From an uncultured Pirellulales bacterium (GTDB taxonomy: Bacteria > Planctomycetota > Phycisphaerae > Sedimentisphaerales > Anaerohalosphaeraceae), in the NCBI GenBank assembly GCA_964630775.1, contig CAZVYY010000014.1:14333-78332 (forward strand): 64,000 nt of DNA, written 5' to 3'. The notes under the pieces are model-generated. The model made no database searches, was not told where the DNA came from, and was given only the letters and a program-made list of their open reading frames with translations. This document shows positions 7,310 to 60,600 of this stretch, one piece after another. A program made the position numbers and the translations under genes. Numbering within the stretch: the first letter of the stretch is position 1; every line of letters begins with the position of its first letter.

Positions 7310-7384
7310 TCGGGGCGACAGGACTTGAACCTGCGACCTCTTGACCCCCAGTCAAGCGCGCTAGCCAAACTGCGCCACGCCCCG
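7310..7384 (-). tRNA. tRNA-Pro (anticodon GGG)
   Basis: I folded the reverse complement by hand. Acceptor stem CGGGGCG/CGCCCCG, D stem GCGC/GCGC, anticodon stem CUUGA/UCAAG with loop CUGGGGG (anticodon GGG), T arm GCAGG-UUCAAGU-CCUGU, discriminator A. CCA is not encoded. Confidence 0.93.
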
Positions 7385-9865: not shown

Positions 9866-11518
9866 CTACTCTAACACTAAAACGGGATTCCAAAATACAC
9901 ACCAGTCACTGTCGATACTCTTCCATCGTGAACCATCCTCATAGAGGCGATTATCAGAATCCCCGCCATCAGTGGCCACCAGCGTCAAAAACCGATCCTC
10001 CGGCTGCAACACCACACAAATCGTATCCCGTTTTCCTATGTTCATGATATTGCGTCTGCTGTATTGCAGCTTTCCATCCACCAGAATCCAGACATCCGCA
10101 TTCGGCGTGCGAGGGGCCAGGGCACTGATATCCAGTTCGGCCTTAAACGCCTTGATATTGATATTGGGCAGCCTGGAGCGAACAGCATCCAGATCAAATG
10201 TAATGCCGAGATTGGCATGCAGCAGCATGCTGGGCTCTTTGGACAGGCTGGCAGCCAATTCCGCATCCGAGACCATAAACTGAGGACGATTGGCGATCTC
10301 GGTGTAATAGTTTCCTTGTGTTGGCGGGCAGGCCTCAAAGACATGCCCCCGGGAACTGATCGTTTGCGGGATTTTGCCATCCGGGACAAACACACCATCC
10401 ACAAACGGATTATGGGGCACCAGGACGTACTCGTTGTCGGCATAGCGATCAACTGTTCGAATTTCAGTGAGCATTCCAGTGGTCGGATCGATTCCGCAGT
10501 TGGTTCTGCCGGTTTCGAAGCCGTCGCCGCCGCCAATCACATCGGCCAGATTCAGCGGCTCTCCCCGCCAGATCAGTTTCCGGGACGAATCCAGACGCCG
10601 GACAAACTGGTTTTCACCCAGCCGCATTTCGCGGGTTTGACCGGTCAGATACTCCACGTATCGCGCCATTCCTGTCGTTAACAGAACACTGCCCTTGCGT
10701 TCGCCCTGCTCGCCGGCCAGCAGCGACGCCTTGCCGTTGAACAGATGAACGCTGCTGGACCCGCTGGATTCGACCTGAACGCCAAACTCCGTCCCGAGGT
10801 CCACCACGCCGGCACTGGGGGTATCCACAACAAATCCCACAGCCTGTGGTGGAATCCGGGCCAGCATCCTGCCGCAATACAGATACATATTCTCTTCCGA
10901 CAGAACAGCAAATTCCGCCGGGCCTTCGACAATAATTTCGGAACCGTAATCAAAGACAATTTTGGCACACCCCGACAGCAGCGATATCCGCCTGCCGTCA
11001 TCATAAAGCCGCTGTCCGGCCTGCAAGGCCCCGGATTCCCCCCAGGTCGCCTGGATGGAATCCGTCAGAACCGCCACCGAACTGGACGCAACACGGGGAT
11101 AGAATGTGGCATAAGCAATCATCATCAGCAGCGCCGCGATCGAGCCGGCAGCCATCCAGAGATTCAGAGGAGTCACCTGCCCGAACAGGCGTCTGTTTCG
11201 AACGTCTTTACCCCCTGATACAATCGGCGTCGAATCGGGCTTCTCAATCTTTGGAGCCCCTTTTTCATTTTCCGCCAGCAGGTTAAACAGGGAATTATAG
11301 CATTCCAGGGAAACGTCTTGCGGTGCGCCTGAAAAGGAGATTTTGCCGGGCTGAGACAATGCCACATAGAGCATGGTAAATTCGATATAATAACAGGCGG
11401 CTTCCGGTTCATGGTCAAGCCATTGCACCAGTTGCTCGTATTCGGCCGGAGTGATGGTGCCCTCCAGCTTTCGGAGAATCAATTCATCCAGTTCAATGGG
11501 CCAGCGACGTTCGTTCAT
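9866..11518 (-). CDS. FecR-like transmembrane anti-sigma factor with long C-terminal extension
   Basis: The N-terminal anti-sigma helix region reads LILRKLEGTITPAEYEQLVQWLDHEPEAACYY. One TM segment is present (LWMAAGSIAALLMMIAYATF), followed by a FecR-type beta domain and ~240 extra residues. The start is set at MNERRW, whose ATG overlaps the sigma-factor TGA as ATGA. Confidence 0.85.
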   Translation of the reverse strand: MNERRWPIELDELILRKLEGTITPAEYEQLVQWLDHEPEAACYYIEFTMLYVALSQPGKISFSGAPQDVSLECYNSLFNLLAENEKGAPKIEKPDSTPIVSGGKDVRNRRLFGQVTPLNLWMAAGSIAALLMMIAYATFYPRVASSSVAVLTDSIQATWGESGALQAGQRLYDDGRRISLLSGCAKIVFDYGSEIIVEGPAEFAVLSEENMYLYCGRMLARIPPQAVGFVVDTPSAGVVDLGTEFGVQVESSGSSSVHLFNGKASLLAGEQGERKGSVLLTTGMARYVEYLTGQTREMRLGENQFVRRLDSSRKLIWRGEPLNLADVIGGGDGFETGRTNCGIDPTTGMLTEIRTVDRYADNEYVLVPHNPFVDGVFVPDGKIPQTISSRGHVFEACPPTQGNYYTEIANRPQFMVSDAELAASLSKEPSMLLHANLGITFDLDAVRSRLPNINIKAFKAELDISALAPRTPNADVWILVDGKLQYSRRNIMNIGKRDTICVVLQPEDRFLTLVATDGGDSDNRLYEDGSRWKSIDSDWCVFWNPVLVLE

Positions 11519-12060
11519 CCCTGCATCTCCCACGCATTCAGGGTCAGCCGGACACAGCGCACCAGCGATCGATGAATTCGCGCCATGACTTTATACATGC
11601 CCGTAACCGGACGCTGCATCTGTTCTGCAATTTGCTTAATCGTCATTCCTTTTTCGTATCGCACCTGAATCAGTCCGCGATCATGATCCTGGAGTTTCAG
11701 AAGACACTGCTGCAACGCCCTGACCTGATCGTCCATCTGTTCGAGTTTTTCCGAGGCAATATGATTGATGTACTCGACGAGGTGATCCGAGAAAAATTCA
11801 TATTCGCTCTTTTTTCGTCGATGATATTCAAGCACCTTATTGCGCGCAATGGTGATGCCCCAGGCGCCGAAATTCGTTCCCGCCTGAAATTCATCGAATT
11901 TCTCCCACATCAGCGCGACGACGTCCTGCATCAGATCTTCAGCATCTGCGGGACGATGGACCATCGCCAGCAAATAGGCATAAATCGGCTTTTGATGAAC
12001 AACAAACAGCCTCAAAAATTCAACACTAAAACTATCTTTTTTTGTTGATATGTCACCCAT
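11515..12060 (-). CDS. ECF (sigma-70 family) RNA polymerase sigma factor
   Basis: 181 aa. Region 2 reads DAEDLMQDVVALMWEKFDEF...FGAWGITIARNKVLEYHRR. Region 4 reads LIQVRYEKGMTIKQIAEQMQRPVTGMYKVMARIHRSL. It resembles the Rhodopirellula/Verrucomicrobium-type ECF family and is translationally coupled to the anti-sigma gene. Confidence 0.9.
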   Translation of the reverse strand: MGDISTKKDSFSVEFLRLFVVHQKPIYAYLLAMVHRPADAEDLMQDVVALMWEKFDEFQAGTNFGAWGITIARNKVLEYHRRKKSEYEFFSDHLVEYINHIASEKLEQMDDQVRALQQCLLKLQDHDRGLIQVRYEKGMTIKQIAEQMQRPVTGMYKVMARIHRSLVRCVRLTLNAWEMQG

Positions 12061-21343: not shown

Positions 21344-21653
21344 GACCTCTTTTGAACCGGTTGTTTTATCTATCTTAGTATAGATAATGTTGGCACACAC
21401 AAAAATTAGACATATTTTTTTTCGTTTTGCAGTTTTTTATGAAATTACTGAACACTCGACAAAATATGAACAAAATAGTGCAAAATAAGTCACTTTATCT
21501 CTGTTCAAAAACAAAAAAATACATTGATAATTTTACCCAATTCAGACAATATGGTGACCCAGACAGATACAGAGCATACACAAGGCCTGTACCTGCACTG
21601 TTCTTTGAACCGAGTACACTGAACGATACCAAAAATATCAACCGGGAGTATTT

Positions 21654-31934: not shown

Positions 31935-32123
31935 ATGATTGAAAAAGTTGTTCACAAGGCAAAATTTTCTGAGCATAACGAAATCCGCCAGAATCTGGAA
32001 TACTGGCTCAGCCGCCCGGCTGAGGAAAGGCTGGCGGCGGTGGAGTTTTACAGAAGGCAGGTCTATGGAACTATCCCGCGACTTCAAAGAGTGGCTCGAG
32101 TTATTAAACGCACACAAGGTTGA
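31935..32123 (+). CDS. Small hypothetical protein (62 aa) overlapping the downstream nucleotidyltransferase gene
   Basis: It starts with ATG. The sequence FSEHNEIRQNLEYWLSRPAEERLAAVEFYRRQVYG...RLQRVARVIKR resembles small proteins I have seen next to NTase-fold genes. It overlaps the next gene by 59 nt in another frame. Confidence 0.45.
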   Translation: MIEKVVHKAKFSEHNEIRQNLEYWLSRPAEERLAAVEFYRRQVYGTIPRLQRVARVIKRTQG

Positions 32124-32520
32124 GTACATCGTTGTCGGCGCACATGCTCTGGCTTTCTATGGCTCCCCCCGATTTACCGGAGACCTTGACATTCTTATCA
32201 AACCCGACAAAGCCAATGCCCGTAAGGTCCTGGACACTCTGGCTGAATTTGGTTTCGGATCGCTTCAATTGACCGAAGAGGATTTTTGCCAACAGGAATC
32301 CGTCGTACAGTTAGGTTATCCGCCTTCCCGAATTGATATTATGACAACATTAACCGGCCTGACATGGGAACAGGTTCTTGCCGGCAAAATTGCGGGCACA
32401 TTAGCTTCTATCCCGGTTTTTTTCATCGGCAAAAAAGAGCTTATTATCAACAAAAAGACCCTCGGCAGGAATAAAGACCTTGCCGATATTGAAGCTCTTG
32501 AAGACAAATCGAATCAATAG
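32065..32520 (+). CDS. Nucleotidyltransferase-fold protein (Pol-beta superfamily, MNT/DUF6036-like)
   Basis: The start is set at MELSRDFKEWLELLNAHKVEYIVVGAHALAFYGSPRFTGDLDILI, which contains the G-S ... D-x-D NTase motif. The upstream part of ORF 31939..32520 has no protein-like features. Confidence 0.7.
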   Translation: MELSRDFKEWLELLNAHKVEYIVVGAHALAFYGSPRFTGDLDILIKPDKANARKVLDTLAEFGFGSLQLTEEDFCQQESVVQLGYPPSRIDIMTTLTGLTWEQVLAGKIAGTLASIPVFFIGKKELIINKKTLGRNKDLADIEALEDKSNQ

Positions 32521-32522
32521 AT

Positions 32523-32630
32523 ATACTGATCCTACTTGAAATTTTCCGGTTCGTCGCGGCTAAGTACAGCAGCTCCAACCACGTGCTTCTTTTGCTCGCG
32601 GAATAATCATACCCCTTGGGTATATTACTC
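32523..32630 (+). repeat. Copy A of a ~108-nt intergenic repeat / candidate structured RNA element
   Basis: About 89 percent identical by my hand alignment to 37355..37462. Conserved blocks, read on the + strand, are GAAATTTTCCGG, CGCGGCTAAG, CTCGCGG, and the hairpin ATACCC-CTT-GGGTAT. It lies between convergent stop codons, and its last few nt overlap the end of the MetF-fusion ORF. The functional strand is unknown. Confidence 0.8.
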
Positions 32631-35075
32631 CGGCTTGCGCACTGAGGCACAGAACTGGCCCATCTTCATCATCGCATCATTGAGTTTGTCCATCGAGCCG
32701 TCAAGCTGGACGAACGCATTAACCAAATCCAGCAATTCCGGATCGGCGGGCTTTTCGCCGTAATGATGTTCAATATTGACAATCCCCGCATCCAGGCCAT
32801 ACTCCATCGCCTTGGCGACATACGCCCGACAAATGCCGATTTTTCGGCCGGGCAGGTCACGACAGCAGTTGCTGACACCCAGTGAGAAATGGCAGCCCTT
32901 CATCTGCGGATCGGATTTGATCTTCCGGATGGTATTGAATGCCCGGTAAGTATAGCCCGGCACACCCGGCTCCATCGGCATATCAATCGCCAGCGGAAAG
33001 ACCGTCGAATCAAAGAAGATTTCCTCGGGCTTAAAGCCAAAGGTCATCGCCTTCCGGAACAATTCTTTTGCCAGGCCGAACAATTCATCCACGGAATGCG
33101 AACCGCCTGGGCCGGTGGGCTTTTCTTCACTGACCAGCAGGCCGATGAATGAAAAGTTGTATTCTTTTTTCAGCGGCATCATTTTATCCGCAGTATAGAC
33201 TTTAATCGAATTCATCAGCGGCGCCCTGACCGGCTGATCGGTATTGTACCATTCTTTCAGGCCGGCAATCAGCACCTCATCATTGCTGCTGTCCAGGCAA
33301 ATCGGCACCCCCATGCCCCACTTACGAACCAGGCGGACATACTGTTTCATCATCCCCACCGCCGCATTCGCATCGGATTCACCAAAAGCATCCAGGTTGA
33401 CGGCGATATAGCTTGCTCCATCCGAGGCCTGCGATTCAATCAACGCGCGGATATAGTCCAACTGCGGGCTTGGCTTGGTATAAGCATCCGGTCCAAGCTC
33501 CTGCAGTTGCTTCATAATTGCTCCGGTCTTGGGGATCGAAGCGTGTATCGATTCGCCGATTTCAATCAACGGACGTTTCATTGTATGGTCCCTTCCAAAC
33601 AGATAATTCACAATCGAACTGGTATGCTCCAGCGCCGGAATGCGGGGACGATTGCTGGTCTGCCGCAGCCGCTGCCGACCGCCAACCTCGGCGGCTGCCG
33701 AACCATAGACCTTCTCACCAATACACAACCGATCCTGATTATTGCCGCAATAACCCTTTACCGTGGCATCGCCGCAGGGGACATTATCCAGTCCTTTCTC
33801 ACAGCCGCCAATGGTGCAATAGCCGAAATTTTCAGGCAGGTAACAGTCTCCGCATTCCTGACACTCAAAAGCAAGGTATTTAAAGCCCTTTTCTATAGCA
33901 TTAAACGCCTTGTATGTACAGCTTTTTTCCTTGTCGGCCCGCACCCAGTGCACACATTTGCGAAATGCCCGGAAGCCGCTGTATTTGGGGTCCAGAATCG
34001 CCCGGTGCATGAAATTAAAGAATTTCTCATTGAACCGCTTCTTTGGCCGCGATAACTCCACTGCCCTGCCGCTGTCATCATACAGATAAAACGCCTTCTC
34101 CGCCGGCCAGTACAAATTATCCTTATACTGCCGCCACTGGTCGCCGATTTGGGCAGCCCGCCGCAGAATCTTCACGAAAATATCAAAATCGTGCACTCCG
34201 CCGATGTCCACCCCTGCAGCCCCAATCGACCGATACATCGCCACCTGCTGGGCCGCCCGTTCGATATGCTCGTCCACCGTTTCCGACTGCAGCTTGGCCA
34301 GCAGCGCATCGCTGACAAAGCAGCCCGGCAGCTTGATATCGTGCATCAGCCGCGGGGCCGGCGTCAGCGTCGTCAGCCAATAGACATTGCCCAGCACAGG
34401 GACTTCAATCCGATTATCCCTGAGATACTGCATCAACTCCATCGACTTTTTCCAGTCCCAGCCGACCTGAGTCACCAGAAACTCCGCTCCGGCGGCAATC
34501 TTCTTCTCCATTTTATAATACTGCTGCATCAGGGAAGCCTCGGTGTATTTAAAAGGCGACACCGCCGCTCCGGCAAAAATCAGCCGTGTCTGAGCCAACT
34601 GCTCTGGAGTGGATTTGATCAGGGCACTGTTGTTCATTTTGTGGATTTGGCTCAACAGCCCCACCGATTCGACCTCAAACACCCCTTTGGCCTTCACCGG
34701 CTTATCCCCAGTCAGAGCCAGCAGCGTTTCCACGCCGCGCTGACGGTACCCCACCAGCGTGCTGGTCAGCCCATCTGCATTGCTGTCTTTGCAGCTCAGA
34801 TGCGGAATAAAATCCAAATCCCCCAGCAAGTTCTTCTGCGTAAGCACGGCCAGTACATCGGACGGGTCGATATTGGCTACTCCGCCGGGATTTTGCGGCA
34901 GCATGATACCGGTAAAATCAAAGCCGCTCGGAATCACCCCCGCCCCGGCCTGCTGATACCCTGTCAGGAATTTCTCAATCGGGGCGAAGCTGTACCCCGG
35001 CCCGCCCGTCAGCTCGGCAACAATGATAAAATCCTTTTTTGCCCGCAGTTGCGCCTTTAATCTCTTTTGAGCCAC
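32625..35075 (-). CDS. Three-domain fusion: methylenetetrahydrofolate reductase (MetF-like) + MTHFR C-terminal Zn-ribbon domain + pterin-binding (MeTr/MetH-like) domain
   Basis: The start is GTG, 8 nt after GGAG. The N-terminal part is a MetF-like barrel (DFIIVAELTGGPGYS...LSCKD...LALTGD). The middle part is the Cys-rich MTHFR_C block (FECQECGDCYLPENFGYCTIGGCEKGLDNVPCGD). The C-terminal part is the pterin-binding barrel (LIEIGESIHASIPKTG...YIAVNLD...PICLDSSN...PLMNSIK). Confidence 0.8.
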   Translation of the reverse strand: MAQKRLKAQLRAKKDFIIVAELTGGPGYSFAPIEKFLTGYQQAGAGVIPSGFDFTGIMLPQNPGGVANIDPSDVLAVLTQKNLLGDLDFIPHLSCKDSNADGLTSTLVGYRQRGVETLLALTGDKPVKAKGVFEVESVGLLSQIHKMNNSALIKSTPEQLAQTRLIFAGAAVSPFKYTEASLMQQYYKMEKKIAAGAEFLVTQVGWDWKKSMELMQYLRDNRIEVPVLGNVYWLTTLTPAPRLMHDIKLPGCFVSDALLAKLQSETVDEHIERAAQQVAMYRSIGAAGVDIGGVHDFDIFVKILRRAAQIGDQWRQYKDNLYWPAEKAFYLYDDSGRAVELSRPKKRFNEKFFNFMHRAILDPKYSGFRAFRKCVHWVRADKEKSCTYKAFNAIEKGFKYLAFECQECGDCYLPENFGYCTIGGCEKGLDNVPCGDATVKGYCGNNQDRLCIGEKVYGSAAAEVGGRQRLRQTSNRPRIPALEHTSSIVNYLFGRDHTMKRPLIEIGESIHASIPKTGAIMKQLQELGPDAYTKPSPQLDYIRALIESQASDGASYIAVNLDAFGESDANAAVGMMKQYVRLVRKWGMGVPICLDSSNDEVLIAGLKEWYNTDQPVRAPLMNSIKVYTADKMMPLKKEYNFSFIGLLVSEEKPTGPGGSHSVDELFGLAKELFRKAMTFGFKPEEIFFDSTVFPLAIDMPMEPGVPGYTYRAFNTIRKIKSDPQMKGCHFSLGVSNCCRDLPGRKIGICRAYVAKAMEYGLDAGIVNIEHHYGEKPADPELLDLVNAFVQLDGSMDKLNDAMMKMGQFCASVRKPE

Positions 35076-35121
35076 AGCAGAATCTCCAAATGTCTATTGT
35101 CTAAGGTTTCTGTTCCTGAAC

Positions 35122-35208
35122 GAAATTGTCCGCCCGAGGCGCGGCTAAGATCCGTTTCAATATATTCTGTGGCCATCCTCGCGGCAAAATATACTTGTTA
35201 AGTATACC
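35122..35208 (+). repeat. Copy C (diverged) of the intergenic repeat / candidate structured RNA element
   Basis: The same blocks occur in the same order and at similar spacing: GAAATTGTCCG, then CGCGGCTAAG, then 28 nt (30 nt in copy A), then CTCGCGG, then the hairpin ATACTT-GTT-AAGTAT. Compared with A and B, the hairpin shows two compensatory base-pair changes. Confidence 0.6.
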
Positions 35209-35300
35209 TGAGCATTCATTATAGAGAAAATGTAACGACAGCGTACCCGAATGCAACTTGTTTTTTGTCTTTTCTTGCTCTTATTCAGGCAAAATCGACA

Positions 35301-36254
35301 TCACGAATAGAAAACCGGTTTTTTCTTGAACTCGCGTACCGTCGGCAGCAGAGCATAATCACAAATACGGTATTCCTCAGCAAGTTCATCGATAAACCGC
35401 TGTACATCCTCCATCCGTCCGGCGTGAATCATCGCAAACAGATTATACGGCCAGCCGGCAAAAGTCTTTCGCTGATAACAATGGCTGACCGCCGCACGCG
35501 ACGCCATCGCCTTGCCCGCTGCATCCATCCGGGCTTTCTCCACGACCGTCGCCAGCATCACATTGACTGTATAGCCCAGCTTACGGTGGTCCAGCACCGC
35601 AACGATACGCCGGATTACGCCCTTATCGGACAACTCCTGTGCAATTTTCAGCAAATCCGGACTCAACGGGCTTTGGGTCAATACGATATCGTCCTGCATA
35701 AGACGCAATGCCTGCCGCTGGTCTGCCGTCAATTCCACAACTCCGCCCGGCTCACCCACAGGCTGATACTCCCCCGCCAGAAAATCCTTCGCTGAAGGCC
35801 CGGCCGGGTCAAAACGCACATCCAGCTTATAAACCGTCTCGGCCGGCAAGGCCTGGAATTCCACCCCGGTTTGCTGCGTCAGTTTGTCTAAAATGGCTTC
35901 GATTCGCTCGAAGGATTCATCCTGACAGGTAAACCAAAGATTGAACTTGTGATTCCGCAGATAATTATGCGACACCCCCTCAAGCGCATTGACCGCCTCA
36001 GCCACCGCGTCCAGCTTTTCTGTCGGCACACTGGCCGTAACCAGCGTCGCCACACGGCCCAGCCGTTTATAATCCAACTGCGCCCGGTATCGGCGGATAT
36101 ACCCCTGTTCTTTGAGCCGTCGGATTGCAGCGATCGCATCGGCCTCCGAACAGCCCGCCTGCTGTGCTAATGCCCGAAACGGCCGCTCCGTCAGCGGCAA
36201 GGGGTTCTGCACCCATTGCAATACACAGTTGTCTAACTCAGAACGTCCGGTCAT
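35301..36254 (-). CDS. Fused AhbA/AhbB-like (NirDL-like) siroheme decarboxylase, two Lrp/AsnC-type modules
   Basis: There are two tandem repeats of an HTH plus AsnC-type ligand domain. The first reads LQWVQNPLPLTERPFRALAQQAGCSEADAIAAIRRLKEQGYIRRY...GVSHNYLR. The second reads LRLMQDDIVLTQSPL...LSDKGVIRRI...AVSHCYQR. The start overlaps the upstream gene's stop as ATGA. Confidence 0.7.
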   Translation of the reverse strand: MTGRSELDNCVLQWVQNPLPLTERPFRALAQQAGCSEADAIAAIRRLKEQGYIRRYRAQLDYKRLGRVATLVTASVPTEKLDAVAEAVNALEGVSHNYLRNHKFNLWFTCQDESFERIEAILDKLTQQTGVEFQALPAETVYKLDVRFDPAGPSAKDFLAGEYQPVGEPGGVVELTADQRQALRLMQDDIVLTQSPLSPDLLKIAQELSDKGVIRRIVAVLDHRKLGYTVNVMLATVVEKARMDAAGKAMASRAAVSHCYQRKTFAGWPYNLFAMIHAGRMEDVQRFIDELAEEYRICDYALLPTVREFKKKPVFYS

Positions 36255-37285
36255 TTCACTTTATCCATACTCGTTTGCCCAAGCACACACAAGGGATCCT
36301 GCCCCAGCAGGTGGCCGTTAGCAATCAGGGCCCGCGCCCGGCAGCCCCGGCAGTCGGCCAAAAAACCGCATCGTCCGCAGAAATCCTGATACTGCGATAA
36401 ATCCCGTATCGACCGCAGCAGCGGGCTGTTGTGCCAGATATCCACCAGATTATACCCGTTTTGCACCAGATTACCCGCCTGAAGTTCCAGGAATCCGCAG
36501 GTCTGCACATCCCCCTGATAGCTGATAAACGCAAATCCGCTGGCCGCCAGACACCCACGAACATGGTCGGCGCCCGGGATGTTCTTCTGCCGGGCGACGC
36601 GGGCAAACTGCGGCCCGCAGGTCACACGCAATTCAATCGGATAGGTCGCCTTCATCGACGCCAGCGTCTCCAGAACCTGCTCATACCGCTTCGGCTCCAG
36701 CAGCAATTGCGTATCCTGCTCGGCCCGCCCCACCGGCACCAACACAAACGGATTCCAGCAGGACGCCCCCAGCTCCACCGCCAGCCGGGCAATCGCATCC
36801 AACTGCTCCACATTCACCCCCGTCAGGGTTGTGTTGATTTGAAACCGCAGGTTGGCCTTGCGGGCCTTTTCGATGGCCTTGAGCGTCGTTTCAAATGCCT
36901 CCGGCACCTGCCGAAACGCATCATGGCTGGCCGCATCCGGCCCATCCAGCGAAAACGAAAACGACAGCAATCCCGCCCGTTTGAACCGTTGAACCGCAGC
37001 ATCATCCAGCAGCGCCCCGCAGGTCGCTATCGCCATCCGCAGGCCCAGCGATTTGCCGTAATCGGTCAGGTCAAAGATATCCTGCCGCATCATCGGCTCC
37101 CCGCCGGTCAGCACGACTACGCACTTTTTCAGTTCCGCTATCGCTTCCAGAATCTTTCGGCACTGGTCCGTCGAAAGGACATCCTGTTCACGGGTCGTGG
37201 CCGACGCCCGGCAATGCCGACATCGCAGCACACACCGCCGCGTCACTTCAAATGCAATTATCGTGGGTTTTATAATTTCAGCCAT
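36251..37285 (-). CDS. Radical SAM/SPASM enzyme of the AhbC/AhbD/NirJ family
   Basis: The radical SAM cluster motif is CVLRCRHC (CxxxCxxC). The C-terminal SPASM-type cysteines are in YQDFCGRCGFLADCRGC. The start was trimmed to the ATG giving MAEIIKPTIIAFEVTRRC, because the ORF-track start is a TTG inside a repeat-rich spacer. I cannot tell AhbC from AhbD by eye. Confidence 0.75.
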   Translation of the reverse strand: MAEIIKPTIIAFEVTRRCVLRCRHCRASATTREQDVLSTDQCRKILEAIAELKKCVVVLTGGEPMMRQDIFDLTDYGKSLGLRMAIATCGALLDDAAVQRFKRAGLLSFSFSLDGPDAASHDAFRQVPEAFETTLKAIEKARKANLRFQINTTLTGVNVEQLDAIARLAVELGASCWNPFVLVPVGRAEQDTQLLLEPKRYEQVLETLASMKATYPIELRVTCGPQFARVARQKNIPGADHVRGCLAASGFAFISYQGDVQTCGFLELQAGNLVQNGYNLVDIWHNSPLLRSIRDLSQYQDFCGRCGFLADCRGCRARALIANGHLLGQDPLCVLGQTSMDKVK

Positions 37286-37354
37286 AACATCTTTCAAGGT
37301 AAAGGGCAAAAGGTAAAAGGTAAAAGTATGGATAGCCCTTCGGGCTAAATATCT

Positions 37355-37462
37355 ATACTGACCCTACTTAAATTTTTCTGGTTCGTCGCGGCTAAGTACA
37401 GTGGCATCAACCACTTGCTGCTTTTGCTCGCGGAATAATCATACCCGTTGGGTATAATTCTC
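37355..37462 (+). repeat. Copy B of the ~108-nt intergenic repeat / candidate structured RNA element
   Basis: See copy A. The hairpin is ATACCC-GTT-GGGTAT. It lies in the hemB to radical-SAM spacer. Confidence 0.8.
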
Positions 37463-37481: not shown

Positions 37482-37550
37482 GTCATACCCGCGGAGGCGG
37501 GTATCCAGCTTTTGCTTGAAACTCTGGATTCCCGCTTTCGCGGGAATGAC
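37482..37550. repeat. Two inverted REP-like 27-nt palindromic units
   Basis: The units are GTCATACCCGCGGAGGCGGGTATCCAG (37482..37508) and the reverse complement of GTCATTCCCGCGAAAGCGGGAATCCAG (37524..37550). Each forms an 8-bp GC-rich hairpin. Translating them yields the spurious LDSRFRGND peptide of ORF 37512..37742. Confidence 0.8.
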
Positions 37551-37639
37551 AATATGCAATACCTATTCACTTGTGAGTTTATCGTTTCAATATTCGTTCA
37601 TTTTGAGTTATTGAATTTTTCCCTTTACCTTTTTCCTTT

Positions 37640-38674
37640 TTACTTTAACATCTTCGCTGCTTCCGGAGCAAAATACGTAATAATAATATCCGCCCCCGCC
37701 CGCTTGATCGACAGCAGGCTTTCCATCATCGCTGCCTCATAATCCAGCAGACCGGCCTTGGCGGCGGCATGAATCATCATGTATTCCCCGGATACATTAT
37801 ACGCCGCAATCGGTACATCAAAATGATGCCGGGCCAGGGCGATGATATCCAGATACGGCAAGGCGGGCTTGACCATCACAATATCGGCCCCCTGCACAAT
37901 ATCCTCTTCCATCTGGCGAAGCCCCTGCCTGCCGCAGGCCGGGTCGATTTGGTGCGTCCGGCGGTCGCCGAAACTCGGCGTGCTCTGGGCGGCATCGCGG
38001 AACGGCCCGTAAAACGCCGAGGCAAACTTGGACGAATAGGACATGATCCCGCATTCGACATAGCCTTCGGTATCCAGCGTCTCCCGAATCAGCCCCACCC
38101 GGCCATCCATCATATCCGACGGCGCCACGATATCCGCCCCCGCCCGGGCGTGGGCCAGGGCCATCGACGCCAGCACCTCAATCGTGCTGTCGTTGTCGAT
38201 ATGGCCTTCATATTGCTGAACCGCCGGCGTCGCAAACGGCGACGGTTTGCGTTTGGGTTTCGCATCCGCCGCCATAATCAGCCCGCAGTGGCCGTGGTCG
38301 GTATAGGCACACAGGCAGACATCCGTAATCACCAGCAGTTGCGGACACTTGGCCTTGATTTTGGCAATCGCCTGGCAGACCGCCGAATCCATCGCCGAGG
38401 CCCGCGAGGCGACGGCGTCTTTTTTCTCTTTAGTCCCGAACAGCAGGATGGCGGGAATGCCCAACTCAGCCATCGCAGCCGCCTCTTTAGCCGCCAGGTC
38501 GGGCGAAAACCGATAGCAATTGGCCATCGCCTCAATCGGCTCCTTGACCTGCTTGCCCGGACAGACAAACATCGGATAAACCAGGTCATCGACCGACAGC
38601 CGAACCTCGCTGACCATCCGCCGCATCGTCGCATTCACCCGCAACCGCCGAAATCGTGTTTGTGGAAAGGACAT
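37640..38674 (-). CDS. hemB: Porphobilinogen synthase (delta-aminolevulinate dehydratase)
   Basis: RFRRLRVNATMRRMVSEVRLSVDDLVYPMFV, the Zn-type cysteines DVCLCAYTDHGHCG, the active-site region VAPSDMMDGRV, and YSSKFASAFYGPFRDA fit HemB. Confidence 0.95.
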   Translation of the reverse strand: MSFPQTRFRRLRVNATMRRMVSEVRLSVDDLVYPMFVCPGKQVKEPIEAMANCYRFSPDLAAKEAAAMAELGIPAILLFGTKEKKDAVASRASAMDSAVCQAIAKIKAKCPQLLVITDVCLCAYTDHGHCGLIMAADAKPKRKPSPFATPAVQQYEGHIDNDSTIEVLASMALAHARAGADIVAPSDMMDGRVGLIRETLDTEGYVECGIMSYSSKFASAFYGPFRDAAQSTPSFGDRRTHQIDPACGRQGLRQMEEDIVQGADIVMVKPALPYLDIIALARHHFDVPIAAYNVSGEYMMIHAAAKAGLLDYEAAMMESLLSIKRAGADIIITYFAPEAAKMLK

Positions 38675-51023: not shown

Positions 51024-52736
51024 TTACTTCGTTGATTCCTTGGATTGAACCCCCAAAACAGGCACGCCCAGGAAACAGCGGTCCGAGTTGATGGGATCCT
51101 TTTCAGAACTGATCATGTGATCGGTTGTGATAATAGTCAGGAAACGGTCTTGCGGCTGTATCGGGATACGGACCATTTCGGACGAATCGATAGGCATGGC
51201 TGTCAGGCTTTTTCGCACCTGGCCATCCACCACAATCCAGAAATCCGCCCGCCCGGCCTGGGATTCCGACGCAGCCGGCTGATTCAGAGTGGGGTTGGGT
51301 GCAATCGCACAGAGTGTTTCAAAAGAGACAATCTCCAAATCCGTCAAATCGTTTCGGATCGCGTCCAAATCAAAGGTAATACCGGCGTTGGCGTGCATCG
51401 TTATGGCCGGCAATCCCGGATATCCGTAACTCGTGTCGCCAATGGTCAGGCGACCGCGTTCGGAATCATAGACATTGCTCAGCACAGATATATCTTTACG
51501 AATATTTCCCGAGGTATCCGGGCATTCTTTGAACAATGTGCCCTCGGAACTGACCACAATCGGCCCGTCGCCGCCATCCGGCACAAACACCCCATCCACA
51601 TACTTCAGACCGTCCACTTTTGAATAGGGGGAAGCTGCCCTGCGTATCGCAACCCCGCGCTGAACGTACTCCATGTATTGCCCATTCGTGGGGTCAATGA
51701 CCATCTGCGGATTACCGCCGCCAAAGCCTCTGCCCCCGGTGACGATATCAGCCAGGTCAAGCCCGCTGCCCCGCCAGATCAGCCCCGTCCGGGAATCAAT
51801 GCTGCGTACAAACTCCCTGGTCTCAACTGGGATCGTAACCACCTGCCCGGCACGATTAACCCGCCGGGCCTGGTCCACCTGCAAAAGCTGGCTGCTGCTC
51901 ACCGCTTGTCCCTTGGACCCTGGAATCAGAGACGCTTTGCCTTTAAACAAATGCACATCACTGGTCCCGTCAAAATCCACCTTGACCGCAAATTCCGTCC
52001 CCAGGTCGATAACCGTCGCCATCGGTGTTTCGACCTTGAATCCCTGTGAACGAGTCGGCACATGGGCAAACAACCGCCCGGACCGCAGAGTCATATCATC
52101 GGCCGCATTCAGCACAAACTCGGCTGGCGCCTCGATCACCACCTCGGCACCATAATCAAACGCGACTTTGACAATCCCTTTCTGGAGCCAGAAAGACTCG
52201 GAACCGCTTGCCAGCCGGCTTCCGGCTGGACAGGTTTGTCCGCCCGAAAAGACCGCATCGATACTATCGGTCAGCGTAGCTACTTTTACCGCACCCTGCG
52301 GATTAAAACGCAGAAACAGGATAATCAGCACCGTCGCGGCTGCCGAAGCAAAAAGCGTCAGCACCGAAGACCGGCTCATTTTATAAACCACCTTCTCGCG
52401 TTTGACCTGCCGGATGAGTTCTTTGCCCGAATCCGTCTTGGCTTCGGCAATACACACCGTCGGTGCGGTGATTTCTTCGCGGGCCAGCGATTGCAAAAGC
52501 GTGGTGTAATCTTCAGACTGTTCCTGGCCGGCCTGCTCTGTGCTCGACAGACGACCCGCATCTCCATACGGCGACAATTCGCCATACAGACGCATGAAAT
52601 CCAGGTATTGCCCTCGCGCCCGGGCATCCTCCACCAGCAGACGATTCAGCATTGCGGCCTGCTCGGCGGTTATATCCCCTTCCAGGGCACGCAGCAGCAA
52701 TTCATTGAACTGAGTATGTCGGTCGTCGAATTTCAT
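51024..52736 (-). CDS. FecR-like transmembrane anti-sigma factor with long C-terminal extension (paralogue of 9866..11518)
   Basis: MKFDDRHTQFNELLLRALEGDITAEQAAMLNRLL is followed by a TM segment (VLTLFASAAATVLIILFL), a FecR domain, and an extension sharing LIWRG, VDGVFVPDG, HANAGITFDLDAIR and DRFLTI with the first copy. Its ATG overlaps the sigma gene's TGA as ATGA. Confidence 0.85.
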   Translation of the reverse strand: MKFDDRHTQFNELLLRALEGDITAEQAAMLNRLLVEDARARGQYLDFMRLYGELSPYGDAGRLSSTEQAGQEQSEDYTTLLQSLAREEITAPTVCIAEAKTDSGKELIRQVKREKVVYKMSRSSVLTLFASAAATVLIILFLRFNPQGAVKVATLTDSIDAVFSGGQTCPAGSRLASGSESFWLQKGIVKVAFDYGAEVVIEAPAEFVLNAADDMTLRSGRLFAHVPTRSQGFKVETPMATVIDLGTEFAVKVDFDGTSDVHLFKGKASLIPGSKGQAVSSSQLLQVDQARRVNRAGQVVTIPVETREFVRSIDSRTGLIWRGSGLDLADIVTGGRGFGGGNPQMVIDPTNGQYMEYVQRGVAIRRAASPYSKVDGLKYVDGVFVPDGGDGPIVVSSEGTLFKECPDTSGNIRKDISVLSNVYDSERGRLTIGDTSYGYPGLPAITMHANAGITFDLDAIRNDLTDLEIVSFETLCAIAPNPTLNQPAASESQAGRADFWIVVDGQVRKSLTAMPIDSSEMVRIPIQPQDRFLTIITTDHMISSEKDPINSDRCFLGVPVLGVQSKESTK

Positions 52737-53284
52737 TGAGTATCCCACACAGTAAGAGTCCGATGAATGCATCGCTGCAGGTTGGTATGAATGGCCGTCA
52801 TGGTTTTATAAATCATCGCAACAGACCGATTCATCTTTTCTGCAATCGTTTGATAGGTCAGATTGTCTTCATACCGCAGGCTCAAAAAATATCTTTCCCG
52901 CTCGTTGAGTTTTTTGATGCAACCTTCCAGCGCGGGCAGCCGGAAATCCGAATCGCCCGGCATGCGGCTGGACTCGTTTAAAACAATCTGGAAGGCTTCG
53001 TCACTGAGGAAAACGGCCTTTTCCCGGTGCTGCTTTTCACGATATTTAAGAACCCGAAACCTTGCTATCGCCATCCCCCAGGCCGTGAAATTCGACTCCG
53101 CCTCGAAATGATCAAACTGCTTCCACATCTCCATCATCGTTTGCTGAAGCAGGTCCTCAGCATCCTGACGGACCGGCACAAGGCTTAAAATGAACACGAA
53201 TATCCGCTTTTGATTGACGGAATAGAGCTTCAAAAACTGCTCATAGCGGTCCGGCCGAGTTTTGTCCTGTTTTTCGATTTCCAT
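52733..53284 (-). CDS. ECF (sigma-70 family) RNA polymerase sigma factor (paralogue of 11515..12060)
   Basis: It has the same block structure as the first copy: DAEDLLQQTMMEMWKQFDHF...FTAWGMAIARFRVLKYRE, and YFLSLRYEDNLTYQTIAEKMNRSVAMIYKTMTAIHTNL. Confidence 0.9.
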   Translation of the reverse strand: MEIEKQDKTRPDRYEQFLKLYSVNQKRIFVFILSLVPVRQDAEDLLQQTMMEMWKQFDHFEAESNFTAWGMAIARFRVLKYREKQHREKAVFLSDEAFQIVLNESSRMPGDSDFRLPALEGCIKKLNERERYFLSLRYEDNLTYQTIAEKMNRSVAMIYKTMTAIHTNLQRCIHRTLTVWDTQ

Positions 53285-54675: not shown

Positions 54676-57600
54676 CTATTGTTTAATTTGACCTGTCTGA
54701 GGATCATATAGTATCCGCAATGTATTCGAAGGCAATTTGAGTGCATTGCCCGTAGGCGTATCCGGTTTAAAATCGGCTTGATTAATTCCTGCCGGCCAGA
54801 TTGAATTGGGGTATGTCGATGGATGATCACCTCCTTTCCAAGTCACATCGATTTTACCTTGCCCACGTTTTGCGAAATCAAATAGCGTATTCGGATATCT
54901 TTGTTGTATCTGTGTTGGCCCTCCTTCATGGGTATATCTTGTTGAATCTGTCAGCTTATCATAATGCACTCGATTTCCCACTCCAACTGCTTGCCTTACT
55001 CTTGGATCATTTGTTCCACGTAGTCCTGAACTCCGCACACTGCTTAGAGTTGGAGACTGTTGCCACAATGGCGGCAATTCAAACATTATAAACATTTCTA
55101 TAAACAACACAATATTTAAAATCGCAGCAATTTCTGCAACAAATTCGCAAGGTGGAATAATCCCTATCATTTGCATAATCATGTGAGTCAAACATGCCAG
55201 CCACATTGAGATAGTAATTTCCGTCATCGCCCAAATACCTGCCGCAACTTTGGGGCCATAATCTATTGAAAACAGCCAAGCACGAGTGGATATCACGCTT
55301 AAAACTTCAGAGATTCCACCTATAAGCATTCCACTTGGATCAACATTATTCACCGGATTCGCTTGGCAATACAGGTACTTATGCAGGCTCTGCGGATCGC
55401 TGGTGTTTCCGGCATACGGATCCATCTGCGTAAATCGTCCATTCAACGGATCATAATACCGGGCACGCAGATAATAACTCTGCGCCGCCGTATCGAATTG
55501 TTCCCCCGTATAAAGCAGCTTGGTCGCAGCGGGCGCCGCCGGAGTCGGATTGCCCCCCAGCAGAATCCCGTACCCATCATAATTATAGCTCTCCACAACC
55601 GAAAGATTGGTCCGCGACAACTGACGTGTCGAGCCCTGTCCATCAACCAGCAGATACTCGGTATCATAGACCGTCCCCATCACCCACGCAGAGGTCCCCG
55701 AATCCCAGGTCCAGTCCGACCTGGTCTGACTGATGACATCATCGCCGATGATATAATGGATACGGCCCTGCGTCGTCGGCACATCGGAAGAATTAAACGA
55801 GGTCGTGCGATCCTCCAGCACCTGGGCATAGCCGGTCGGATTGGCCGGATCAATCAGGTAATCTGTTATCTTCTTTTCCTGAGCCGCCCCGCCGTTGATC
55901 GTCCTGTAGGTATAGCTGCCCGTCCGTATGCCGTCCGGATTATACGCATATTCCGTCACGACGCGAATCACATCCGATCCGACAATGGAATACTGTGTCA
56001 ATCGCGACAGGCGATTCTGTAAATTGTACTCGCTCTTGTCGTATTTCAGGCTGGTATTGGCCGCAACGATGGCCGCCGGATCGCCGGAGGTGGAGACATC
56101 CGCATAGATTTTATAGGTCTGCGAACCGTTGCTATCATAGAAGTAGGTGATAACCTGCCCTGCATGTCCCCACGCCTGCGTGCTGAGCTGGTGATATTGC
56201 ACATCCGCATAAGCCAGATACTGGAATGTCTCGGGTCCTATCAGGAAAATATAAGCCAGCAGCACACAAAGGCATCTATGATAAAGACTTAAAGACACTC
56301 TTTCTACTGGCGGAACCAGCCGGCAGGTCTTATACAGCCACTGTGTCATCGCAGGCCACAGGAACACCACGGGGACCAAAATCATCACAATAGCCAGCAG
56401 CCAGCGATTCCAGACCGAAGGCAATCCCGCCCAAAACGCCTTAAATTGTCCCAGAGAAATCGCGTTATCAGAGGATTGATACGTAAAACCGCCGCTGCCG
56501 TCGGCACAGGCAAAGATGCGATCATTGTCCCATGGTATCGCCGCAAAAATGGCCTGTTCAAGGCTTTGTTCCTTACGAAGACGGTTGCCGCTGTCGTATT
56601 CGATATATTCCGTGGACAGGATTTCGCTGGTCGGGTCCATGGAATTGCGGACCACCTGAACCTGCCGCCCAAGACGATTCCCCGCCAGATCATAAGCATA
56701 TCTGGCAGTATAGCCATCATCCGCCGCCGGATTCAGACTGGCCGTGCTGTAGCTGTCTTCCTGAACCAGCCGACCCAAATTATCATACTGATAAGCCAGA
56801 TAACGATTCTGATTGACAAATTCACCAGCCCCCTTCCGCATCCCCGACGCGTTAAGCTGATAGGAATAGGAACCCACCACCGTGGTCTTGGCTGTCGTCT
56901 GGTAATGCACCAGGTCCGTCAGCCGGTTCAGGCCGTTATAGCTGTATTCCGTATAAACCCCATTGGGCAGGGTTGCAGACTTGCGATTGCCCACCAGATC
57001 ATACTCATACGTCGTCAATTCCGTCGGGCTTAATAGCTGCCCGTTGCGAACCATCGCCCGCGTGGTCTTGAGCCGACCCAGCTCATCATAACCATACTCC
57101 GTCGCAAGTTCTCCACCCTTGCGGGTAAAGCTCTTCCGGCCCGTCGTCGGGTGATAATCATAATGGACCGTCCCCTGCGGCGTGACAATCGTCGTCACAT
57201 TGCCTTCATCATCATAACTGTAACTGGCATAATAGGTTACCGTCGACGTGCCGGTATAATTCGTCACCGTTTCAGTCAATTTCCGACCGAGATTGTCGTA
57301 GGTATAGTGCAAGACTTCGGCCGGAGTCGATGGGTAATGGCTGTTCTGGAAATCGCCCGGCGTCGCGTCAGCCGCATAATACCGCTTGTACTCCAGACGG
57401 CCGAGGGCATCATAGGCATACCCCGTCACCTGCTCCTTAAAGTCCATTTCCCACTGCAACCGGTTATGGCCGTCATAGCCCTTGTATTCCGTGCCGCAGC
57501 CCGGAACCGTCCGAGAAATCTGCCGATGCAGGCCGTCGTATGCAAACACAGTCTGGCGGGCATAGGCCGACACAATGTCAGTGGCCGGGTCGAAAGTTGA

Positions 57601-60600
57601 CTCCCACGAACGCTTAAGCTGATAGAGATTCTCCCGTATGATGCTCTGATTGCCATAAGCATCATACGCATATTCATACCGCGGATAAACCCAGATCGAA
57701 TCCGCCCCCGGTGTCGTCGGATCATCGATCTCCACCAGCGGCAAAACCACCGCAATCAGCCGCCCCGCGGAATCATACTCAAATTCCTTGGTGTTGACAC
57801 TCTTATACAACGCTACATGCGCTGGATTGCTACGATCAATATCAGGATCGCCGGGTCCAATATAAGACTCAATCGTCGTCTGTTCGGCTTCCCACCACTT
57901 CCGTCCCAGGCTGTCATAGCCGACGTGGGAATACGTCTCCACAGGCGTGGTTCCGGAGCCTTCGACAAGCGAGGCTGGATGGATGGTCGTGATCACCCGG
58001 CCGAGGGCATCGTAGTCAAACGAAGTAGTATGCCCCAGGCCGTCGGTGACGGACTGCCGGCGGGCGCCGTCATACACAGTCACCGTCTCGGACCGCTTGC
58101 CCGTGGTATCATTGGGCAGCGTAATAGTCCGAATCTGCCTGCCGGCGGTATCATAGCGATATTCCGCCGTACAGATTTCCGCATTGGATTCATTGAGGCT
58201 GTACGACTTCCACACCCGCCCCGCCGCATCGTATTCCGTCCGGCTGTAGGACAGCGGCCCGGCCTGCCACCATGCCAGATTCGCCGTAATCACCGGCACC
58301 TTGCCGCCGCTGGTCCAGGCAAGCTGTGTCTGCCCCGGCGTACTCGTCCACGCATTGCCCGCCACACGATCCTGGGCCAGCGTGACATACAGCAGCTCGC
58401 CGGATTTCATCACATAATCAAACAGAATATCCACATCCGCCCATCGCCGGGTCTGTTCCACCCGGCCAAGGTCATCATAGACCGTCTCCGTCCCGACCGG
58501 CGAGTGCTCGGTATCGGCCGGATCATACGGCCCGACAGCGACAATCGCCCGCCCTTCCGTATCATAAAGGGTGCGGGATATCGTCAAAATCCCCGTCGTA
58601 TTCCCGGTAGTCAGGTAATTGGTGTAATGGGTCTGATACGCTGCAAATGAGGAATAAACCAGCGTCTCGGCAAGATTGCCTGTCTCATCATAATGGTACT
58701 GAGTCAGAATCCCGTTTTCATCGATGCTGGTATTGACCTTCCCGATGGAGTTATAATCGGAGTACGATAACGCAATCGCTTCCACACCTGCCTGCTGCTC
58801 ATTGATATGCGCCAGCAATACGGCAACATCCATCGGCGTTCCTGCGACCGTCAAATCCTGAACCACACGATAAGTCGCAATGGTCCGCCCCTGAACATCC
58901 GGCCGGTTATAAGTCAGTATCCGCTTATCAGGATTGGCACCAGTCGCGGTGTCATCCCACAGTGTCCAACTGGCAAGCTGATGATTGTCGGCATCATACC
59001 AGAAATACTGCGTCTGCCCATCCGGCCCGGTTACCGAATACGGCTGATCCGGCGAGTAGCCCGAATCAGTGGTATACTCAAAATAGGTGTACGAGGTAAC
59101 ACTGCTGTTACTGGCATTAGCATTCCAGCTATTGAACAACTCACTGTACGACTTCGGCTCGTTGGTCGAATCCATCAATTGCGACACAATCGAATGATCC
59201 ATCTTGACCTGCACCGACTCCAGAATCCGGCCGCTGGCATCATACCGTGTCAAACTGATGGAATGCCATACCATAGCCAAGCCCTCTCCGGTCGTTGTGC
59301 CCGTGAAATACGGCAGATTCTTGAGTCCGGAGGCATCATCGGTTCGGATATACGCAGTCCGCGTAGTCAACACTTCGACATAAGCACTTGTACTTTCATC
59401 CCATTTCTTTTGTGTTACACGGATAACATTACCATTCGTGTCATATTCCGTTTCTGAAAGATTCTTCGCCGGATCAATAACAGTCTGTGTTCTCAACCGT
59501 CCATATTCCGGCTCATTCGGATAATCATCATAATATGCGTAATCATAAAGCGTTACCGCATCCACAAGCTGCGACAGATCGTCCGGATTCGGAACCCGAG
59601 TCGTCACCGAAAGCTGACGGTCCGGGCCAAACCGATTTTCCGAATCATAGGTGTATCGCGTCACTTTCCCGGCCGAATCGGTCACCGACAGCACATTCCC
59701 CCGCTTGTCATATTCATAAATGGTGGGATTGCCGGCACGATCCGTAACGATCTCCTGCCGACTGCTGACGTTATGAGTAATCGCAATCCGATTGCCTTTG
59801 GCATCCACCGTGGCAATCAGGCGGCCGGCCGCATCATATTCATACCGAATCGGCTGCAAACCCCGCGGATCGATAATCGCGGTAACATAGTGGTCCGATG
59901 GAATATGGGTTCCATCCGCATAGCTGTAAGTCAGCGTTTCATATTGTGAATTCGGATCAGCATTCGGCTTGACCAGCTTGGAAACTTTCCATAAATTCCC
60001 CGCGGTATCATAGGCATATTTCACCGTCGGCAATGCCCCGCCCTGTTCCCTGGGGCCCCAGACTTCCACAATGCGTCCGTAGGTATCATAACCAATCTTG
60101 ATCGCCTTGGTCGGAGCGCCGAGTAAATCGATATGTTCCACACCCGCTGAATCAATCTGCCCAATCCGCCCATTCGATAAATTGACATTCAAATCAATCC
60201 GTTCTCCCGTCGGCAGGCCAATCTCAGACAAATACAGCGGTCCTTTGGGTTCAACATAGGCAACCGAATTCCCATACTCAACAAAATCCTCTCCGACATA
60301 CGACCGTCTGAACACATACGACGTCCCGTCCTCCATGACCAGACGATAGCCTTCAAATTCATAGAATCCCGGATCAGAATAATTGCCCGAGCCGCTGACA
60401 AAGCTGGCCGTCTTCTGGTTCGCCCAGGTATTCAGCAGTGTCAGCCGTTCTTCACTCAGCGTCTCCAGCCGTGCTGACACTCCTTCCGGCGAGGTATACT
60501 TGACAACATAGTACTGCATTTGGCCGTTGTAAAGCTCCGGCTTTTTCAACTCCAGTCCGAATGCAAATGTCACCCGTCTGCCATCCGGCAGCGTCAGGGT

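Follow-up and report, generated by a model that had tools for sequence, protein, structure and literature searches.

A small, non-coding and non-autonomous mobile repeat family very probably gave rise to all three copies of a roughly 100-nt element lying in and beside a hemB-ahb-MTHFR gene string of a planctomycete genome, each copy being an independent insertion. [quoted passage not shown] The stretch analysed here, referred to below as the window, comprises 64,000 nt of contig CAZVYY010000014.1 (positions 14,333 to 78,332, forward strand) from an uncultured bacterium placed by GTDB in the Anaerohalosphaeraceae (assembly GCA_964630775.1). A preliminary description of this DNA reported three same-orientation copies of the element: A, B and C. 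All three are present as placed; the boundaries have been refined and are slightly narrower than those first drawn.

32522-32624, plus strand: copy A, subfamily I, 103 nt, TATAC...GGGTATA
35106-35206, plus strand: copy C, subfamily II, ~101 nt, hairpin ATACTT/AAGTAT
37354-37456, plus strand: copy B, subfamily I, variant with GTGGCATCAACCAC...GCTGC

A repeat search of the window aligns A and B without gaps over 115 nt at 87% identity, 4832 bp apart and in the same orientation; across the element proper (TATAC...GTATA) the identity is 89.2%, in agreement with the ~89% originally reported. Copy C had been described as a diverged copy that keeps the same ordered blocks. As exact blocks, the window contains CGCGGCTAAG three times and CTCGCGGnAnAAT three times; all six lie on the plus strand, within A, B and C and at the same spacing, and both GAAATTnTCCG and the hairpin ATACTT/AAGTAT are also found in C. 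The preliminary description had named shuffled controls as the test of this copy, a test that would have spoken against it. On generic local alignment C does no better than chance: its score of 32.5 is matched by two chance hits in the window, and an nhmmer profile built from A and B only does not recover it there. The homology is settled by a profile built, leaving the window aside, from four subfamily II copies found in other genomes, which matches C over nearly its full length (E=8.1e-31) and also detects A (E=6.4e-9) and B (E=1e-7). Given this result and the 90% identity between C and a copy in another genome (locus L008, 6289-6396), C is a member of the second subfamily and did not arise by decay of A or B. 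At its 5' terminus it is degenerate, with GTTTCTGTTCC in place of the family's TATACTGATCC, and this copy is therefore probably an immobile fossil.

The element is modular. The subfamily I consensus is TATACTGATCCTACTTGAAATTTTCCGTTTCGTCGCGGCTAAGTACAGCAGCTTCAACCACTTGCTTCTTTTGCTCGCGGAATAATCATACCCGTTGGGTATA, to which copy A is 96% and copy B 91% identical. A conserved left end of ~45 nt (TATACTGATCCTACTTGAAATTTTCCGnTTCGTCGCGGCTAA) and a conserved right end of ~28 nt (CGCGGAATAATC followed by the hairpin ATACCC-GTT-GGGTAT and an A) enclose an exchangeable middle that defines subfamilies I, II and III; what was first called a variable spacer is thus the exchangeable module. Subfamily I, to which A and B belong, is 103 nt long. 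Subfamily II, of 101 nt, comprises C and at least four further copies; it retains the ends and the two CGCGG blocks but differs in the middle and has the hairpin ATACTT/AAGTAT, and subfamily III (~172 nt) joins the 45-nt left end and 28-nt right end of subfamily I to a longer, hairpin-rich middle. When left-end matches were paired with right-end matches, the only classes obtained, apart from artefacts, were those of 100-110 nt and ~172 nt.

The family is dispersed. When GTDB genomes, one for each species, were scanned with a pattern, at least 105 loci matched, and those listed were all within six Phycisphaerae (Sedimentisphaerales/Anaerohalosphaeraceae) assemblies: UBA7708, CAZKAI01, Anaerohalosphaeraceae 8_bin.82, ADS3, a Sedimentisphaerales metagenome-assembled genome and the isolate U12dextr. 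Copies run to dozens in UBA7708, CAZKAI01 and 8_bin.82 and are few in U12dextr. Across the collected loci (0.72 Mb) nhmmer found 139 matches, 114 of them full length, with unrelated flanks; the 124 near-full copies represent 110 distinct sites, 12 of which are common to more than one genome. Besides the copies by which the loci were selected, these 0.72 Mb hold ~34 copies and the 64-kb window holds three, in both cases ~47 per Mb, which suggests, as a rough figure, on the order of 100 or more copies per genome. No copy was found in viral contigs, and we found no publication on repeats in this clade. As far as sampled, the family is confined to the Anaerohalosphaeraceae/Sedimentisphaerales (Phycisphaerae, Planctomycetota).

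The metagenomic data give the same picture. When Logan contigs were placed on 31.8-38.8 kb of the window, depth in the source sludge metagenome was ~1000x over the bins of A and B, ~150x over the bin of C and ~35x over genes and flanks, so that A and B stand at ~30 times flank depth. Contigs of the sludge metagenomes end inside each copy, and more than 100 contig ends pass over into unrelated DNA at precisely 32521/22, 32626/27 and 37457/58. Two runs labelled 'METAGENOMIC RNA-Seq' (X4 and X5) agree in contigs, depths and number of records with X1 and X2, the DNA runs made from the same samples; apparently they repeat those data or were sequenced from DNA, and nothing on expression can be read from them.

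That the element moves can be seen at orthologous loci. The relevant genes and sites of the window are the following.

31939-32520, plus strand: nucleotidyltransferase-like open reading frame (ORF), convergent with the MTHFR fusion
32625-35075, minus strand: MTHFR-DUF5981-pterin-binding fusion, 816 aa
35301-36254, minus strand: NirD/L-like siroheme decarboxylase fusion (ahbA/B)
36251-37309, minus strand: radical-SAM/SPASM gene (ahbD-like), with its start at 37285 in the public gene call
37640-38674, minus strand: hemB (ALAD)
36267-36277, plus strand: possible remnant of the family hairpin (ATACTCGTT-TG) within the last codons of the radical-SAM gene, from alignment with the ortholog L037
21364-21365, no strand: empty site, an orthologous intergenic position that is filled in L078 and L071
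3210-3247, minus strand: weak left-end-like remnant (GATACTGCCGTGAAATTCTCCGTTTCGGCATGG) adjoining rpsO, marginal (E=0.053)

Copy A occupies the spacer between two convergent stop codons, TAG at 32518-32520 (plus strand, nucleotidyltransferase-like ORF) and TAA at 32625-32627 (minus strand, MTHFR fusion); with the copy removed, ~3 nt (A-TA) of spacer would be left. Copy B, between hemB and ahbD, is ~45 nt upstream of where the minus-strand radical-SAM ORF starts, and the end of C is 31 nt upstream of the GTG that starts the minus-strand MTHFR fusion. In 8_bin.82 the ortholog of window positions 33.7-40.3 kb is locus L037, which is ~92% identical and differs from the window at each element site. 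Copy B is cleanly absent there, GGGCTAATCTTT running directly into TAATTCTCAA in an unchanged gene order; B is a lineage-specific insertion. Near C, L037 has a consensus-like subfamily I copy on the opposite side of the CCTGAGCAT block, ~10 nt from the position of C, and this copy is a separate insertion. Between ahbD and ahbA/B, L037 carries a 5'-truncated 90-nt copy (5365-5454, E=3e-20) where the window keeps only ATACTCGTT. The ahbD-like frame of L037 (4358-5413, plus strand in the locus) ends inside this inserted copy and so has a C-terminal tail different from that encoded at window 36251-36277. Conversely, the window is empty between 21364 and 21365, where L078 (758-867) and L071 (5246-5355) have a subfamily I copy. 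Such filled and empty sites at loci of ~92% identity show that the element moves. Copy number, unrelated flanks and insertion polymorphism all support the REP/MITE-like family that the preliminary description had listed among its options.

These comparisons also bear on the proposal that the copies are cis-regulatory or leader RNAs, of riboswitch or attenuator type, that are dedicated to the hemB/ahb/MTHFR cluster and mark its transcription units. The positions of B and C, 30-50 nt upstream of minus-strand starts, would suit such a role, as would the compensatory changes in the hairpin described below, but we regard it as very improbable. At least 100 copies adjoin unrelated genes in several genomes, A sits between convergent stops with no gene downstream of it, and no Rfam family matches the element. 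The earlier statement that the copies delimit every transcription unit of the cluster does not survive the comparison with L037, which lacks B, has a shifted copy near the position of C and has an extra one between ahbD and ahbA/B.

A further reading is that A and B, as direct repeats, are recombination sites or the product of a local duplication around an excisable or mobile 4.8-kb ahb-MTHFR segment. They are indeed in the same orientation, 4832 bp apart, and some metagenome contigs seem to join A-like to B-like sequence. These joints have 25-31 nt on the shorter side and approximately single-copy depth, and are expected from other family copies that resemble A in one part and B in another; they are not deletions. 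Copy A is 96% identical to copies in other genomes and 89% to B; A and B are different sequence variants, each nearer to copies elsewhere than to the other, so that they arrived as independent insertions and not by local duplication. The ortholog, moreover, keeps the gene order without B. We consider the recombination proposal unsupported and extremely improbable.

Having identified the copies as insertions of a mobile family, we turn to the structure of the element. In the consensus fold only two helices are backed: an invariant CGCGG/UCGCG stem that encloses the middle, and the terminal hairpin. The hairpin shows both-side changes in three of its six pairs (10 cells), a value reached in none of 500 shuffles. 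Nine of these ten cells come from five subfamily II copies and represent one evolutionary split, but independent compensatory cases are seen in L053 (ATATCC/GGATAT) and L036 (ATGCCC/GGGCAT), and the terminal hairpin is therefore maintained as a structure. The original argument from the copies of the window, that compensatory changes indicate selection on structure, thus holds family-wide, with the qualification that the signal is mostly one split and that RNA function is not implied: conservation of the hairpin can equally reflect recognition by the transposition machinery. Single-side changes are uninformative as to the folding strand, G·U and C·A wobbles being balanced. Rfam covariance models gave no match on the elements, either at gathering score over the whole window or at E<=10 over 32.3-37.8 kb, nor did a permissive search of four loci with subfamily III copies; the tRNA/tmRNA scan had no match on the elements, its sole match in the window being a tRNA-Pro at 7310-7384. 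We have also considered the element as a portable promoter or terminator and, on inspection of the consensus, rejected this as a general feature: sigma-70 and intrinsic-terminator scans gave weak, flank-dependent matches at B and C only, and the terminal hairpin is not followed by a T-run.

Other hairpins occur in the same sequences. Outside the elements there are five solo ATACCC...GGGTAT hairpins, which seem to form a small hairpin family of their own. Between hemB and copy B the window has two hairpins rich in GC, ATACCCGC-GGAG-GCGGGTAT at 37485-37504 and ATTCCCGC-TTTC-GCGGGAAT at 37527-37546, and the ortholog L037 (4239-4258) conserves them. Similar solo ATACCCGC...GCGGGTAT hairpins are found elsewhere (L003 5615-5634, L102 2332-2350), two of them followed by GACAAGTC. 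Logan contigs break at the 37485-37546 hairpins as well, and the outer stem is the same as that of the element hairpin; these have the look of terminators or of a REP-like hairpin family distinct from the element. A 33-nt inverted repeat (37293-37325 and 37616-37648, 79% complementary), with GGTAAAAG-like units rich in purines in one arm and their complement in the other, brackets everything between hemB and ahbD, copy B and the two hairpins included; L037 has kept the two arms.

A second small repeat is also present. It is ~90-130 nt long (...TGTAGCTCAAGCCTCCGTGCTTGAGGTCATTCAGCCTCGCCGAAGGCGAATCC...), forms two hairpins and is found at L037 ~3950-4060 and L096 ~5717-5780. In L037 it is inserted just downstream of the hemB ortholog and is absent from the window near 37640, and in L096 it interrupts a left end of the family described here. 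It is probably another mobile intergenic repeat family of the clade.

Copies of the element are almost always in short A/T-rich intergenic spacers, with TA on both flanks in 83-94% of them, followed on each side, symmetrically, by three A/T-rich positions. In L073 abutting subfamily II and subfamily I copies share one TA (...GTA-TA-TAC...). The ends are asymmetric, with 45 nt on the left and 28 nt including the hairpin on the right, and we found no terminal inverted repeat (TIR) beyond the 5 nt of TATAC/GTATA in subfamilies I, II or III: when the left end was compared with the reverse complement of the right end, 2814, 470 and 1696 of 5000 shuffles, respectively, scored at least as high as observed (p=0.56, 0.09 and 0.34). 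The consensus fold has no left-end hairpin; only the right end has a conserved one.

Orientation is strongly biased. With the plus strand of the element taken as in the preliminary description, it is antisense to the flanking genes at 52 distinct sites in spacers between tandem genes and sense at 11 (p=1.7e-7), and as a rule the complementary strand runs in the same direction as the flanking genes and belongs to the G-rich strand. The single orientation of the three window copies follows from this bias, because the flanking genes of the string are all on the minus strand. After removal of the coding-strand effect the residual GC skew is negative in the orientation of the element for 89 of 121 copies (p=2e-7), and in convergent or divergent contexts 25 of 31 copies are on the C-rich strand. 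In a logistic fit, flanking-gene direction and the skew from non-flanking genes are each independently significant, the flanking-gene term being the stronger. Inside tandem gene strings, the median distance to both neighbouring genes is ~29 nt.

One interpretation of these numbers accepts the mobile origin but attributes orientation to selection and not to the insertion mechanism: the reverse-complement RNA would act within operons as a REP-like stabiliser or processing site. The 52:11 ratio, the greater weight of the flanking-gene term and the short distances to both neighbours can all be read in this way, and the reverse-complement strand of A and B folds somewhat better than shuffles (z=-2.1 to -3.0). 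We nevertheless think it unlikely, given that no covarying consensus structure was found beyond the terminal hairpin and the invariant CGCGG/UCGCG stem, that the middle is exchangeable between subfamilies, that copies in convergent and divergent contexts still follow the skew-defined strand, and that single-side hairpin changes produce wobbles equally on both strands. The window copies are probably co-transcribed as the reverse complement, and any putative effect on mRNA stability or processing would be secondary.

As to how the element moves, it would be mobilised in trans by an enzyme whose gene lies elsewhere in the genome, with the conserved ends and the structure-conserved terminal hairpin acting as the recognition signals of that enzyme; the copies of the window would then be mere passengers in the hemB-ahb-MTHFR gene string. 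We lean, tentatively and short of even confidence, toward a strand-specific single-stranded DNA (ssDNA) mechanism of HUH/Y1 type, as for IS200/IS605-derived elements and REPINs, because the ends are asymmetric, there is no real TIR, the hairpin is kept as a structure and orientation tracks the replication or transcription strand. The element may instead be a classical TIR-bearing MITE of an IS630/Tc1-mariner-like, TA-duplicating DDE transposon, moved by cut-and-paste and with its orientation shaped afterwards by selection. This is possible though somewhat doubtful. The TA on both flanks with its symmetric A/T-rich context, the single TA shared by tandem elements and the small, non-coding, multi-copy and polymorphic nature of the family are what such a transposon would leave behind; the TIR no better than shuffles in any subfamily, the strongly asymmetric ends and a strand bias unexpected of symmetric cut-and-paste are not, and no parent insertion sequence (IS) was found in the sequence searched. 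A more far-reaching idea, which we hold to be somewhat unlikely, is a new type of strand-specific ssDNA-mobilised element in Planctomycetota, with asymmetric ends, a structure-recognised terminal hairpin, TA-adjacent cleavage and replication-coupled insertion. It would be driven by an HUH enzyme (possibly single-copy and host-domesticated) or another non-DDE recombinase, and the orientation in which it is transcribed may have been put to use as an RNA element inside operons.

Several observations weigh against the account of an ssDNA-mobilised, non-autonomous family, and we collect them here. The TA flanks and the symmetric A/T-rich context fit a TA-duplicating DDE enzyme as well or better, and a clear hairpin is present at one end only, unlike in IS200/IS605. 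Both empty/filled comparisons (B in L037 and the site at 21364/21365) differ by a few bases at the junctions, where the TA can be assigned to either element or target. No transposase was found among the clustered recurrent neighbouring proteins, which are pseudopilin-like proteins, ECF sigma/anti-sigma pairs, histidine kinases and similar; no autonomous partner was found between left-end/right-end pairs or in the scanned parts of the window, and no parent IS with family ends in 0.78 Mb of loci and those same window parts. The orientation statistics come from simple custom gene calls on 8-kb loci with GC skew as a proxy for replication direction, and the effects of transcription and replication on orientation are not fully separable. 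Finally, the scan pattern required the conserved blocks, by which conservation of the family is overestimated and diverged subfamilies are undersampled.

Locus L066, considered in the search for an autonomous parent, has a truncated subfamily III copy with host genes after it. The neighbour-protein survey found no RAYT (REP-associated tyrosine transposase) gene in the collected loci. The same survey drew attention to paralogous pairs on the minus strand of the window (9866-12060 and 51024-53284), in which a small ECF-sigma-like protein is followed by a FecR-like protein of ~555-580 aa; such pairs recur beside many element-bearing loci (clusters of 8), the family being assigned by reading of the sequence only. 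In L003 an Acido-Lenti-1 RNA is matched by Rfam at 2622-2667 on the minus strand (42.5 bits against a gathering score of 37, E=1.2e-6), 4 nt from a subfamily I copy at 2510-2618. At the end of the window (54676-63999, minus strand) an ORF of more than 3100 aa runs off the sequence, with repeats at 53.7-60.0 kb; its many internal degenerate repeats (families D2-D4, D7 and D10, for example ...CCAGATCATACGCATAT...) suggest an Rhs/YD-type repeat protein. In the gene string itself, the 816-aa protein is an uncommon fusion of MTHFR, DUF5981 (MTHFR C-terminal) and pterin-binding domains in an uncommon neighbourhood, directly downstream of the ahb-like genes of the alternative heme pathway and hemB. 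The ahbD and ahbA/B frames of the window share 4 nt (ATGA).

The family says nothing special about heme or C1 metabolism. It should be masked or labelled when Anaerohalosphaeraceae/Sedimentisphaerales genomes are annotated: it breaks short-read assemblies, could be mistaken for a cluster-specific regulatory RNA and can alter gene ends, as in the ahbD frame of L037. The family has also been active recently, in an anaerobic planctomycete lineage that has received little study, and provides strain-level insertion markers that are usable for strain typing. Which enzyme mobilises the element is a tractable question, raised by its asymmetric ends and its strand bias.

Among known systems, the family resembles MITEs with TA targets, such as the Correia/NEMIS elements of Neisseria and those derived from IS630, in its length of ~100-150 nt, its lack of coding capacity, its intergenic copies numbering tens to hundreds, the TA on either side of them, their presence or absence among close relatives and its internal-length subfamilies. 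It has no sequence similarity to Correia/NEMIS or IS630-derived MITEs, the host phylum differs, and where Correia and other MITEs have TIRs of 20-30 bp it has five inverted nucleotides, asymmetric ends and a biased orientation. Small size, lack of coding capacity, multiple copies and polymorphism are thus shared with classical MITEs, and a TIR of ~10 bp or more is not.

With REP/REPIN-RAYT systems and the IS200/IS605-derived palindrome-associated transposable elements (PATEs) it shares the lack of a TIR, a structure-conserved end hairpin, a strand-linked orientation bias and a place between genes, in many cases convergent ones or those of an operon. A REP is a palindrome of 20-40 nt that has a GTAG/CGTC head and usually occurs in inverted doublets, whereas our element is 103 nt long, has a single 15-nt terminal hairpin and no GTAG head, and occurs as single copies. 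IS200/IS605 elements have similar subterminal hairpins at both ends, whereas here the hairpin lies directly at one terminus; of the features that define PATEs, the missing TIR and an orientation tied to the replication strand (with skew as the proxy) are seen and hairpins at both ends are not. In the sequence searched, neither a RAYT nor a TnpA was linked to this family.

Conserved end modules, a variable middle and probable transcription with neighbouring operons recall BOX of Streptococcus pneumoniae and ERIC/IRU of enterobacteria, but sequences, hosts and architecture differ, ERIC being an imperfect palindrome throughout and BOX containing repeated boxB units. It also differs from integron attC sites: by inspection, the consensus contains no R''(RYYYAAC)/R'(GTTRRRY) cores, and the copies are dispersed among housekeeping genes on many contigs. 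In its behaviour the element is a MITE/REP-like non-autonomous element that fits the definition of no established family, and we have filed it as a new one.

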